Shown piece by piece: positions 16,500 through 32,000 of a stretch of DNA of 32,000 nt; the stretch's first letter is position 1; each line of letters starts with the position of its first letter. The position numbers and the translations under genes were made by a program. A model generated the notes under the pieces. That model saw only the letters and a program-made list of their open reading frames with translations. It had not been told where the DNA came from and searched no databases. The stretch spans positions 150,001 through 182,000 of the forward strand of contig JBHLRO010000001.1 of assembly GCA_048882505.1 (NCBI GenBank). Reading direction: 5' to 3'. This stretch comes from Candidatus Thorarchaeota archaeon. Its GTDB lineage: Archaea; Asgardarchaeota; Heimdallarchaeia; Hodarchaeales; Hodarchaeaceae.

Positions 16500-19442
16500 T
16501 TACTTTCTTCTCGCTCTGCGAAGGAAGAAGGTTTCCCAACTTAAACCAGTGAGAATGATCACTAAACTGGAGAAGAAACTTAAATTAGGAATTGGCGGTG
16601 TGGTGGAAGTAGTCGGGGTGATAACTGTCACAACCACTGTATCCTTGACACTAAAACCAGCTAGGTCGTAGACCTCACAGACATACGTGTAAGTCCCGCT
16701 GGCTAGCCCGTCGATGATTTTAACAATACTGCTCCCATCCCAGATGCCATTTTCAACAACTTTTCCGTTTCTTGTAACACTATAATTCTTCGGATTGTTT
16801 TCCTTCGGACTCCAGGTGATCCTGTGACCAGTGGTTCCCTCCTCATATGTTACGTCCGCTGGATTATTGATGGTAGGAGCGGTCGTATCGATAGTTAAAC
16901 TCTGATACATCGAAAAAAGGCCCTCCTTATCATTAGCATCGTTCGCCGCTACACGCCAGTACCAAACGCCATCAGCTAAGATATCACTAGGGGTGTAAGT
17001 AGTAGACGATTGTTTTATAGAAATGAAGTCAAGTGAATCAAAAGTAATTGTAGTGTCCAGTTGAAATGTATAGTTCGATGCCCCCGAAACAGTACTCCAT
17101 GTAAAGGTAGGAGTAGCCTCAATAGTAAGAATTCCATCACTTGGTGCAGTTAACATTGGTACATATTGGTAAGAGTAATCGATCGTCAGACTAAATAATC
17201 GAGGAGTTGCGAGAGTGGAAGTATTTAGTTCTACTTTCCACGTCAATTGAGTGCCAGCACTGGTGAAAAGATGGGTCATATCAGGAGTAATCAGTTCCCA
17301 ATTTGCTCCACCATTGGTGGAAAGGTAATAGGTGATATAGGTGTTGGGAGGAATGGTTGCAGTAGCAGTGACAGTCGCATTACTTAAAAGAGACCCAGGG
17401 GGGTTGGTAAACACAATGCTCGATTGAGCAAGACCATAAGATTGAAATTGTCTTCGTAGATGCCAGCTTTTCTCGATCACCTGTAATCCACTAGAACCAT
17501 CAGCTACATAGGCGTAATCCCCAGACACCGCCACACCGTAAGCCGTGCCAGAAGTATTGTAGGAACCTGCAAAAGTCGGGCTGGTGGGATGAGTGATATT
17601 AATCACCTCTAATCCGCTATTGTAACCCGCTACATACGCAAAATCACCTATTGCTATTAAATTCCAAGCCCAATCTGGAGTATTGTAGGATCCAGCTAAC
17701 ATCGGGATTGTGGGATCAGTGATATCAATAACCTGTAACCCGCCGAATTGCTCCACGATATACGCATAATCACCCACTACCGCCACCCCCCAAGCCTCAT
17801 CAGGGGCACTGTACTTACCAGCTAACGTCGGGATGCTGGGATCAGTGATATTGATCACCTGTAGCCCGCCAGTGAGATCCGCTACATAGGCATAATCACC
17901 AGCTACCACCACATCACGAGCAAAATCAAGGGTACTATAATTACCAGCAAACGATGGGGTGGTGGGATCACTGATATTAATCACCTGCAACCCACCAATA
18001 CGATCAGCCACATACGCATAATTACCGACCACCTCCACACTATAAGCATAATCAGGGGTACTGAAATTGCCAGCAAAAGTCGGGGTGGTGGGATCACTGA
18101 TATCGATCACCTGTAACCCACTGTCCCAAGCCGCCACATAGGCATAATCACCAGCTACAACCACATCGGAAGCATAACCAGGAGCATCATAGGAACCAGC
18201 CAGAGTCGGGTTAATCGGATCAGTGACGTTTATGACCTGTAAACCCCTATGGTTATCGGCCACATAGGCGTAATCGCCTGAAACCACGACGCCAAATGCG
18301 GTACCAGGGGTATCATAGGCACCAACTAAGGAAGGAGGTACGGGGTCACTTATTTTAATTACCTGCAATCCACTAGTATATCCCGCAACATAGGCATAAC
18401 CACCCACTATTGCAACGCCTTGAGCTGAATCAGGAGTAATGTAGGAACCTGCAAAAGTCGGAGTAGCGGGATTAGTGATGTTAATTACCTGTAACCCATT
18501 AGAAGAACTAGCAACATACGCGTAATTGCCATCGACAACAACACGTTTGGTACCCACAGGTGTATTGTATACTCCAGCTAAATTCGGATTAGAAGGGTCG
18601 CTAATATCAATCACCTGTATATGAACGCTAGAGGAACCAACAATATAGGCATAATTGCCCGCCACTTCAACTGCGACCGCCCAATCAGTATTGTAGGTTC
18701 CTACCAAAGTCGGAGTAGAAGGGTCGCTGATGTCAATCACCTGTAACCCGCTAGAACCATCCGCTATATAGGCGAAATCGCCCGCAACAACAACACCCCA
18801 TGCCTGACCAGGGGTATTGTAAGCACCTGCAAAAGTCGGTGTGTTAGGATCAGTGATATTGATCACCTGTAACCCACTAGTATATCCAGCGATATAGGCG
18901 TAATCGCCAACAACCACCACTTCGTAGGCATTACTAGGGGTAGTGTAGGTACCAGCCAATGTAGGGGCAGATGGATCACTGATATCTATTACCTGTAAAC
19001 CGTTACCACTATCCGCAATATAGGCGTTATCTCCTGTCACCACTACATCGTTGGCATTACCAGGGGTATTATAGTCTCCAGCCAAAATCGGGTTAGTCGG
19101 ATCAGTGATGTTTATCACCTGTAATCCACTGTCCCAATCAGCTACGTACGCGTAATCACCTTCCACAACCACATCTTGGGCATAACCCGGGGTGTTGTAG
19201 GAACCAGTTAAAGTAAATTCTTTACGTTTTAAACTCAGATTACCAAAACCCCACCCCTCTACCGTTGTTTTGCCAGCATGCATGAAAGTAGTTGTGTCAA
19301 AAGTCTCCGTGAACGAGCTAGAAATTGCTTGAACTGGAAGGACGACTGGTTGTTGCGCCACCCAGACAACAAAAAGAAAAATAAAAACCAGGATTTTTTT
19401 GTGAGATCCTTTTTTTACTCTCAACCTCTTAACATTCCTCAT
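16500..19442 (-). CDS. Cell-surface glycoprotein: signal peptide, 14 LVIVD repeats, beta-sandwich/FN3/Ig-like domains, Thr-rich linker and C-terminal membrane anchor
   Basis: Basic-hydrophobic N-terminus; 14 x 42-aa repeats (...GDYAYVAD..SGLQVI.I.DP..P); DTTAPTINNPAD...ITW...GLASGTYTY Ig-like domain; TM segment ending RRARRK. Confidence 0.93.
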   Translation of the reverse strand: MRNVKRLRVKKGSHKKILVFIFLFVVWVAQQPVVLPVQAISSSFTETFDTTTFMHAGKTTVEGWGFGNLSLKRKEFTLTGSYNTPGYAQDVVVEGDYAYVADWDSGLQVINITDPTNPILAGDYNTPGNANDVVVTGDNAYIADSGNGLQVIDISDPSAPTLAGTYTTPSNAYEVVVVGDYAYIAGYTSGLQVINITDPNTPTFAGAYNTPGQAWGVVVAGDFAYIADGSSGLQVIDISDPSTPTLVGTYNTDWAVAVEVAGNYAYIVGSSSVHIQVIDISDPSNPNLAGVYNTPVGTKRVVVDGNYAYVASSSNGLQVINITNPATPTFAGSYITPDSAQGVAIVGGYAYVAGYTSGLQVIKISDPVPPSLVGAYDTPGTAFGVVVSGDYAYVADNHRGLQVINVTDPINPTLAGSYDAPGYASDVVVAGDYAYVAAWDSGLQVIDISDPTTPTFAGNFSTPDYAYSVEVVGNYAYVADRIGGLQVINISDPTTPSFAGNYSTLDFARDVVVAGDYAYVADLTGGLQVINITDPSIPTLAGKYSAPDEAWGVAVVGDYAYIVEQFGGLQVIDITDPTIPMLAGSYNTPDWAWNLIAIGDFAYVAGYNSGLEVINITHPTSPTFAGSYNTSGTAYGVAVSGDYAYVADGSSGLQVIEKSWHLRRQFQSYGLAQSSIVFTNPPGSLLSNATVTATATIPPNTYITYYLSTNGGANWELITPDMTHLFTSAGTQLTWKVELNTSTLATPRLFSLTIDYSYQYVPMLTAPSDGILTIEATPTFTWSTVSGASNYTFQLDTTITFDSLDFISIKQSSTTYTPSDILADGVWYWRVAANDANDKEGLFSMYQSLTIDTTAPTINNPADVTYEEGTTGHRITWSPKENNPKNYSVTRNGKVVENGIWDGSSIVKIIDGLASGTYTYVCEVYDLAGFSVKDTVVVTVITPTTSTTPPIPNLSFFSSLVIILTGLSWETFFLRRARRK
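17470..19217 (-). repeat. Intragenic tandem repeat, 14 units with a 126-nt period (LVIVD blades)
   Basis: Recurrent atcacctgtaa and acataggcgtaatc DNA motifs at ~126-nt spacing; 14 protein repeats counted. Confidence 0.93.
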
Positions 19443-20173: not shown

Positions 20174-20785
20174 TTAAAACAGTTCGGCAAGCTGTTTCCG
20201 AATTACAGAGGGTTTGGATTTCCGCCTGAGATTTTCCCGTTTCACCGCAAAATCCATTATATTTTCCCCGAGAAGTGAATAGGCGTCATGAACCTTAGCC
20301 CCTGTTTTTGCGGATGTTTCGACGTAATGGCAAGCGAATCCCATAGAAGAAGTTAGATTGGAGAGTTTCTTACTGATCAGCCTGCCTTGTTCGGAGGTTA
20401 TGGGATCATCACATGACTGACGTAAATCTATCTTATTTGCCACTACAACAACAGGCACCTTCCCTCTGCCATTATTCGCCCAAAGCTCTTTAATCCATTT
20501 TACGCAGTTGTAATATGATTCGGGTCTAGAGACATCATATACCAACAAGGCACCCATGGCTCCCTTGTAATAGACGTCTCTTACGCCGTCAAATCGTTCT
20601 TGGCCCGCTAAATCCCATATCTGATATCTTATTGGATTACCATGGATAACCTCATCTTTCATGGAAAAATCTGCGCCGATCGTCATTACGTATTGAGTTT
20701 CAAAACCATGGCCAAGGTATCGCTCACGAATTGCGGTCTTACCCACACCACCATCGCCGATTAATACAATTTTAAAAACGATCAT
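20174..20785 (-). CDS. Rab-like small GTPase (Ras superfamily)
   Basis: G1 GDGGVGKT, G2 T in MTIGADF, G3 WDLAGQE, G4 NKID, G5 ETSAK; RabF-like YQIW, YYKGA and LVYDVS. No C-terminal Cys. Confidence 0.95.
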   Translation of the reverse strand: MIVFKIVLIGDGGVGKTAIRERYLGHGFETQYVMTIGADFSMKDEVIHGNPIRYQIWDLAGQERFDGVRDVYYKGAMGALLVYDVSRPESYYNCVKWIKELWANNGRGKVPVVVVANKIDLRQSCDDPITSEQGRLISKKLSNLTSSMGFACHYVETSAKTGAKVHDAYSLLGENIMDFAVKRENLRRKSKPSVIRKQLAELF

Positions 20786-31493: not shown

Positions 31494-32000
31494 TTGCGAC
31501 GTAGTTTAGATCAGAAGGCCATTCAGTTTTCAAGAATATTACCCCAAGAAGTCCATCAGCTTTTAAATATCCTAAAATCCCATAATAAGGAATCCTTGGT
31601 AATCGGAGGGGCCGTCAGGGACTTTTTCTTTGGGGTTCCTATTGGGGATTTTGATTTAGCAACATCAGCGGTTCCAAGCCAGTTGATTCAGTGGTTTCAG
31701 GATTCAAATGTCAAAACTAAATCAATTGGCGGTGAATTTGGAACAGTCCTTGCCATCATAGGAAAAAAGGCTTTTGATGTGAGTACCTTTAGGCGTGAGC
31801 ATTTTCCCGCCCCTGGAAAACCCCCAATAGTTACATTCGTGAAATCATTGGCCGATGATTTAGCCAGAAGGGATTTTACTATTAATGCACTAGTCTATGA
31901 TGATGCAGATAAAAAGATTTTCGATCCCTATGATGGTCTTCGTGACATCCGAGAGCGCGTGATTCACATTATAGGAGATCCTTTTATTCGTTTTCTTGAA
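31494..32000 (+). CDS. Class II tRNA nucleotidyltransferase (CCA/poly(A) polymerase head domain), partial; runs off the right edge
   Basis: Not in the ORF track; translated by hand from TTG 31494 (AGGGG upstream): ...LVIGGAVRDFFFG...DFDLATS...GGEFGTV...STFRRE...DDLARRDFTINAL...DPYDGLRDI...IGDPFIRFLE. Confidence 0.93.
   Translation, partial: MRRSLDQKAIQFSRILPQEVHQLLNILKSHNKESLVIGGAVRDFFFGVPIGDFDLATSAVPSQLIQWFQDSNVKTKSIGGEFGTVLAIIGKKAFDVSTFRREHFPAPGKPPIVTFVKSLADDLARRDFTINALVYDDADKKIFDPYDGLRDIRERVIHIIGDPFIRFLE

Follow-up and report, generated by a model that had tools for sequence, protein, structure and literature searches.

A second, divergent class II tRNA nucleotidyltransferase without the motif E arginine in Hodarchaeales-type Asgard archaea

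Every tRNA requires a CCA end, and the split of the enzymes that supply it into class I and class II has long been treated as a domain marker. The Hodarchaeales are the archaea often placed nearest to eukaryotes, and the locus described here shows a genome of this group with two class II genes. It raises the question of why the family retains two copies, one of which is canonical and fused to a kinase-like extension, while the other has a rebuilt loop and no arginine in motif E. The window analysed is a stretch of 32,000 nucleotides (G000:C1:150001-182000, G000 being the own genome and C1 the own contig), and it ends within the second of these genes. In the list of open reading frames, 31494..32000 on the forward strand holds the first 169 codons of a class II (PolyA_pol head) tRNA nucleotidyltransferase of 385 aa; the frame starts with TTG at 31494 and stays open to the window end. 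The full gene, whose recovery had been proposed in the preliminary description, ends at C1:182651, 651 bases beyond the window. We call its product the short copy, although at 385 aa it is a complete enzyme of normal size and is short only relative to its kinase-fused paralogue. It scores 106-109 bits on PF01743 against a cut-off of 23. The coordinates of all features are collected in Table 1.

Table 1. Positions of the features discussed. Positions are those of the window unless a contig is named; residue numbers refer to the short copy.
Feature	Position	Strand	Basis and conservation
980-aa protein with 14 LVIVD repeats, a beta-propeller and a Big_13 domain; probably a surface protein	16500-19442	-	
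Ras-family small GTPase, an Asgard-type eukaryotic signature gene	20174-20785	-	Pfam Ras, 147.8 bits
Short copy, 5' part, 169 codons	31494..32000	+	Pfam PF01743, E 2.8e-31 on the window part alone; AF2 model, full head-neck-body-tail fold
Motif A, GGAVRD (residues 38-43; 31605-31622), and catalytic DxD, D52, F53, D54 (DFD, 31647-31655)	31605..31655	+	Translation; 17-orthologue alignment; G38, G39, R42, D52, D54 invariant
Beta-turn region TVLAIIGKK	31746..31772	+	17-orthologue alignment; L86, I88, K91 invariant in the short clade
B/A motif R100-x-E102; E102 is the third catalytic carboxylate	31791..31799	+	R100, E102 invariant
Flexible-loop position HFPAPGKPPI	31800..31829	+	Alignment; 1-2 aa shorter, DGR(R/H) consensus gone
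Motif B, RRDFTINA	31866..31889	+	R125, R126, D127, F128, N131 invariant
Motif C, D144...G148..D151...IG161	31923..31976	+	D144, G148, D151, I160, G161 invariant
Motif D start, E169 of EDGLR	31998..32000	+	Translation; codon GAA, last of the window
Short copy, whole gene, 385 aa	G000:C1:181494-182651	+	
PA0069/Rv2578c-type radical SAM protein, 438 aa	G000:C1:182717-184030 (717-2030 bases past the window end; L009:717-2030)	+	
Long paralogue, 658 aa	G000:C8:106647-108623 (L008:2648-4624)		

The draft genome comprises 83 contigs and 4.32 Mb, with 94.55% completeness and an estimated contamination of 3.7%, and the nearest relatives of the short copy outside the Asgard archaea are bacterial. Both observations would fit bacterial contamination or a chimeric assembly join. 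Against this, the gene lies deep within a 515-kb contig with an even GC content of about 0.40, and the same window carries the Ras-family GTPase, a prolyl-tRNA synthetase (ProRS) with a ProRS-C_1 C-terminal domain, and other ordinary genes. We take this C-terminal domain to be a mark of the archaeal/eukaryotic-type enzyme. A partial SSU rRNA on contig C16 of the same genome scores 1091 bits on the archaeal model. The nearest protein relatives come from MAGs labelled Heimdallarchaeota, Hodarchaeota or Hodarchaeales (86% identity, then 47-37%), and the same GTDB family has orthologues of the short copy in 17 other species genomes, among them single-contig assemblies with both paralogues. On two such assemblies (G009 and G011) no archaeal SSU rRNA was found, probably as the rRNA was unassembled or masked; the evidence for an archaeal identity is thus the C16 rRNA of the own genome together with gene content. 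Among bacteria, the best matches reach only 29-37% identity and are scattered over many phyla. A scan of genome contigs gave no specific bacterial donor, the best candidates in this range of identity being Saccharibacteria, Myxococcota, Spirochaetota, Bacillota and Gemmatimonadota. With this archaeal context, the family-wide orthologues and the low and scattered bacterial identity, contamination is scarcely credible, and neither a bacterial or chimeric contig nor a recent isolated transfer from a particular bacterium, both of which the preliminary description had allowed for, is supported. Its reading of a class II enzyme in an archaeal context stands.

The preliminary description had also suggested looking for a class I enzyme and for a partner CC-adding enzyme. 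No class I enzyme was found in the own genome with PF09249 or TIGR03671, both of which detect all four archaeal control genomes, or by tblastn with the class I proteins of the related genomes G001, G020 and G022. The short copy itself matches neither the tRNA_NucTransf2 domain (PF09249) nor TIGR03671. The genome has two PF01743 genes, the short copy on C1 and a gene of 658 aa on C8, called the long paralogue here. Of the 39 predicted tRNA genes, none has a CCA after it, and at least 27 do not encode one. Given these tRNAs and the lack of a class I enzyme, CCA addition must come from the class II enzymes. In the same tRNA predictions, ARAGORN called genes with very long 'introns' (0.7-1.8 kb) at C5:57676, C11:1510, C15:46744 and C16:65877, along with many genes with short introns; such calls could be artefacts or true interrupted genes.

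The long paralogue has a canonical loop (Y.DGRRP) and a canonical motif E (ERxxxE), followed by a C-terminal extension of about 250 aa that is P-loop/kinase-like, and a length of about 650-700 aa is conserved across 17 genomes of the family. A partner class II gene therefore exists, a point that the preliminary description had proposed to check, but with its full loop it is not a loop-deleted CC-adder. Since this partner retains both the loop and ER, the pair does not show the classical division of labour between a loop-deleted CC enzyme and an A enzyme. On NF009814, the equivalog for CCA enzymes with a cut-off of 290 bits, the long paralogue reaches 245.9 bits and the short copy 165.1, both below the threshold.

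The preliminary description had cautioned that archaeal class II genes might already be known, and a bioRxiv preprint of 2026 by Cassidy, Doktor, Betat, Morl and Prohaska (10.64898/2026.05.29.728689) reports exactly such genes, in several archaeal groups. Its Hodarchaeales ("Heim02") have class 2 enzymes only, with an "A and B paralog" in some genomes, and one Hodarchaeum class 2 enzyme adds CCA in vitro, its A/B type being unstated. The replacement of class I by class II in the Hodarchaeales is thus already known. In that work the Hodarchaeales enzymes group with later-diverging bacteria, and a separate clade holds Heimdallarchaeaceae, Bacteroidota-like bacteria and early eukaryotes. Duplication versus two transfers is left open for the A/B paralogs, and their function, motifs, architecture and kinase fusion are not covered in its text. 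The earlier suggestion of a link to the origin of eukaryotic CCA enzymes finds no support here: the preprint puts the Hodarchaeales enzymes away from the eukaryote-related clade, and the sequence score of our short copy is 128.6 bits with the Bacillus CCA enzyme versus 84 bits with human TRNT1.

The short copy has the features of the class II superfamily, namely GGxVRD...DxD with a third carboxylate, RRD, and EDxxR. The GGAVRD, DFD and RRDFTINA motifs named in the preliminary description are all present (Table 1), and EDxxR begins with the last codon of the window, as it had said; D170, R173, a degenerate motif E, and the body and tail follow beyond the window end. We aligned 17 short-copy orthologues (alignment A1). 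Besides the invariant positions in Table 1, E169, D170, G171, R173, R176, R179 and F180 of motif D are invariant, as are E214, K217 and a C-terminal WxRxTGxNxSE motif. Residue T129 of motif B varies (T/R/G/S/K). The roles of the B/A motif and of the third carboxylate have been described (PMC7014341, PMC3925840).

Two other regions of the short copy are altered. For comparison we used 95 enzymes, made up of 17 long paralogues, 12 and 8 enzymes from two other families of the class (f6 and f4, respectively) and 58 bacterial enzymes. Motif E reads [E/D]R-x3-E in all 95, whereas none of the 17 short copies has an Arg or Glu at the ER positions (T209 and V210 in the own protein); the later residues of the motif, E214 and K217, are retained. 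The loops of the comparison set are of the Y.DGR(R/H)P, TDGRHA or, in f4, SRxP types, and a loop Arg is found in every one. In the short clade, DGR(R/H) is absent from 17 of 17. The loop there is 1-2 residues shorter and has a pattern of its own, with an aromatic residue at 104, G108 and P111; the own loop is HFPAPGKPP, and the loop of the clade has no conserved basic residue left. The loop is not deleted, as the spacing from TFR to RRD is 30 residues in the short copy versus 31 in the long paralogue. In the beta-turn (AIxGK), every one of the 17 short copies carries Lys91, and the long paralogues lack a conserved basic residue at this place. Additional lysines in the beta-turn of nematode enzymes help to position the primer (PMC7730189).

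We compared these sequences with the signatures published for the known types (PMC2910056 and preprint 10.64898/2026.05.29.728689). None of the 17 short copies matches ERxxxExxxhh (CCA and CC enzymes), sRxxxExxxhh (A-adding enzymes and poly(A) polymerase, PAP) or the PAP signatures. The short copy thus fits none of the CCA, CC, A and PAP sequence types, and its missing motif E Arg is without counterpart in the four described types. The absence of the PAP signature had been remarked on from the window and extends to the whole short clade. The loop had been likened to that of A-adding enzymes, a reading to which the published A-adding signature sRxxxExxxhh, absent here, lends no support.

An AlphaFold (AF2) model built on the alignment of the 17 orthologues has a pLDDT of 91.6 and a pTM of 0.89, and its head-neck-body-tail fold is complete. 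Foldseek with this model matched 1miv at E 2.5e-17 and all class II structures. Comparison by VIA aligned about 310-365 residues (model residues 2-385) with each of the solved class II enzymes, at Z scores of 23-30: E. coli PAP (3aql) 29.9, Bst CCA (1miv) 29.7, human TRNT1 (4x4w) 27.9, Aquifex CC-adding (3wfs) 27.3 and Aquifex A-adding (4wby) 25.5. Structure by either method does not separate the CCA, CC, A and PAP types. The NCBIfam equivalogs for CCA, PcnB and A-adding enzymes did not provide an identity either, with the scores of both paralogues far below the cut-offs; for the short copy these are 124.7 bits against 305.65 for TIGR01942 (pcnB), 86 against 702 for NF008634, and 50 against 1440 for NF041569 (A-adding).

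The family set comprised the 22 genomes of the window's GTDB family, the own genome included. In 17 of these, PF01743 finds exactly two genes, with products of 652-701 aa and 373-414 aa. Genome G006 (89% complete) has the short copy only, G010 has a fragment, G001 has no class II gene but a true class I enzyme (361 bits), and neither class was found in G003 and G019. Loci L038 and L039 cover the relatives G001, G003, G019 and G020; the last of these carries both class II genes and a 341-aa class I-like frame (74.5 bits). Elsewhere in the class, a single class II gene is seen in f4 (open frames of 434-534 aa) and f6 (mostly 440-580 aa, several frames being cut by contig ends). One f6 genome, G068, has two class II matches, and four further families of the class have no class II genes. 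A search of 1.84 billion representatives gave no more than about 8 clusters of short-type proteins (365-392 aa), and no fused form of these; the higher-scoring long proteins are tandem canonical domains. Protein P0248, from a Logan contig of 19 kb, is a distant relative of the short clade with 365 aa and no ER. It reads KGFDI at the site of the first catalytic Asp, which may make it an inactive offshoot.

With full support, the 17 short proteins group in a clade of their own. Its stem branch is long, 1.59 by FastTree and 1.86 with a mixture model, compared to 0.83 and 0.67 for the long clade. Short and long proteins of the same genome are 28-36% identical. The same genomes are grouped in the subclades of the short and the long trees, and over 120 species pairs the pairwise identities of the two copies are correlated (r = 0.87). 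The short copy is somewhat more diverged (46.5% vs 53.5% identity). Values of dN/dS between close species are 0.13-0.23 for the short and 0.19-0.23 for the long copy. The short copy is co-inherited vertically with the long copy and is under purifying selection. The most economical reading is that a single origin preceded the radiation of the family, and that the short copy went through a burst of change before coming under stable selection. Attempts to place the short clade on the tree did not give a firm position. FastTree puts it beside a Gemmatimonadota-like bacterial group with weak support (88), and in the mixture-model tree it lies in a polytomy. The tree joining the short and long clades is only 1.17 log-likelihood units worse and is not rejected by the AU test (p = 0.48). 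With the polytomy and this p value, neither a duplication nor a second transfer can be claimed, and the origin may have been a second transfer in place of a duplication.

The gene directly downstream of the short copy, on the same strand, encodes a radical SAM protein of the PA0069/Rv2578c type. It is also found 3' of the short paralogue, on the same strand and often overlapping, in 9 of 16 other species. This gene was found beside none of the other class II loci (0 of 117, comprising 80 bacterial loci and 37 of the long, f6 and f4 types). Pfam gave no match to the C-terminal domain of the radical SAM protein. A literature search returned nothing on the function of PA0069/Rv2578c-type proteins. 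It is conceivable, though unlikely, that the short copy is neofunctionalised, with a specificity or substrate outside CCA, CC, A and PAP, and that it acts with the radical SAM protein in the repair or marking of 3' ends; such a pathway, on tRNA or RNA 3' ends, would be peculiar to the archaea closest to eukaryotes.

What the altered loop and motif E mean for activity can be judged from enzymes described before. According to the literature, the flexible loop is required only for the addition of A76, and it is deleted in bacterial CC-adders. Eukaryotic CC-adders keep the loop and have lost its conserved positions, and they add CC only (PMC7014341); replacing D103, G104 or R105 of the human enzyme by Ala likewise leaves CC addition only (PMC2910056). 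Loops fall into families with differing conserved positions (PMC7014341, PMC2910056). As these families differ and the short clade has a conserved loop of its own, loss of DGR is no proof that A addition is lost. A stabilising effect on the helix-turn of motif D, and perhaps a contact with the primer, has been ascribed to motif E, and the role of its Arg is only loosely defined in the literature consulted.

We propose that the short and long class II enzymes together stand in for the archaeal class I enzyme in Hodarchaeales-type Asgard archaea. In the short copy, D52, D54 and E102 are the two-metal catalytic carboxylates, RRD is the ribose-binding motif, and E169-D170-x-x-R173 is the protein template by which enzymes of the family select CTP and ATP. 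The short copy would add C and/or A to tRNA-type 3' ends in a template-independent manner. It could have arisen by duplication in the family ancestor; a burst of change would then have cost it the motif E ER, invariant elsewhere, along with the DGR(R/H) consensus of the loop, before constraint set in. The most likely reading, at about even odds, is that the short copy is an active, non-redundant tRNA 3'-end nucleotidyltransferase, and we likewise give about even odds to a restricted or specialised activity at the tRNA 3' end. Within such a restricted activity, a CC type with weak or no A76 addition, by analogy with the eukaryotic CC-adders, is a tentative suggestion, and an A-only enzyme, a repair-type enzyme or a specialist for certain substrates is rather unlikely.

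It is also possible, if somewhat doubtful, that the short copy is a second bona fide CCA-adder, possibly the housekeeping one, in which motif E and the loop have only drifted. The catalytic, ribose-binding and templating residues and the B/A motif are intact, the body and tail are complete, and the loop is nearly full length with clade-specific conserved positions. Loop families vary widely among true CCA enzymes, and the Hodarchaeum enzyme that adds CCA in vitro could be of either paralogue type. Drift, however, does not sit well with the loss of ER in every short copy when [E/D]R is kept in the whole comparison set, long paralogue included, or with a long stem branch that is followed by constraint, and the retention of both copies through the whole family radiation argues against redundancy. 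A PAP-like enzyme, or one that tails other non-tRNA RNA, would parallel the origin of bacterial PAP from CCA enzymes. PAP and A-adders also lost the E of ER, PAP tolerates loss of the loop, and E. coli PAP gives the top VIA Z score, tied with Bst CCA; the pcnB model also registers, at a score that is far under its cut-off. We nevertheless consider this improbable, as the PAP signature and the R of sR are missing in all 17 orthologues, and the compact, conserved body and tail carry the WxRxTGxNxSE motif and end without a long basic C-terminal extension. The degenerate motif E, the variable Thr of motif B and the Gly that replaces the first catalytic Asp in P0248 might hint at a catalytically silent, tRNA-binding paralogue that serves as a regulator or chaperone. 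This is very unlikely, since invariant D52, D54, E102, RRD, D170 and R173 in 17 species and the low dN/dS would be unexpected if catalysis had been lost.

If the short copy does have a partial or new activity, it would give the archaea their first example of class II CCA synthesis that is divided or diversified, and would be a natural test of the purpose of motif E and the loop. If the short copy is an ordinary CCA enzyme, the ER motif would be shown to be dispensable.

The best matches to the short copy in sequence and structure are the CCA enzymes of Bacillus stearothermophilus (1MIV) and Planococcus (6IBP), which share its size of about 400 aa, motifs A-D and the four-domain fold. They have the loop Y.D.RRP and the ER of motif E, and the short copy has neither. 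The CC-adders of Salpingoeca rosetta and Schizosaccharomyces pombe are similar to it in that the loop length is kept and the conserved positions are lost, and in being paralogues alongside another class II enzyme (PMC7014341). However, CC-adders keep ERxxxE (PMC2910056), unlike the short copy, and the partner in S. rosetta and S. pombe is an A-adder, whereas the partner of the short copy looks like a full CCA enzyme. Bacterial A-adding enzymes and PAP I have also lost the E of motif E, derive from a CCA-type ancestor (PMC2910056) and match the short copy equally well over the whole fold. Yet they keep the R (sRxxxExxxhh), and PAP has GRRF, none of which is present in the short copy; A-adding enzymes pair with a loop-deleted CC enzyme, and the partner of the short copy has a full loop.

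The long paralogue belongs to the same class and the same genomes, and differs from the short copy in its canonical loop, ER, kinase-like tail and shorter stem branch, and in not adjoining the radical SAM gene. The A/B paralogs of the preprint agree with our pair in their lineage, in the presence of class II only, in the two copies in some genomes and in the affinity to later-diverging bacteria. The short copy is almost certainly one of these two paralogs, to which the present analysis adds the loss of motif E and of the loop consensus, the co-inheritance, the selection, the stem length and the radical SAM neighbour.
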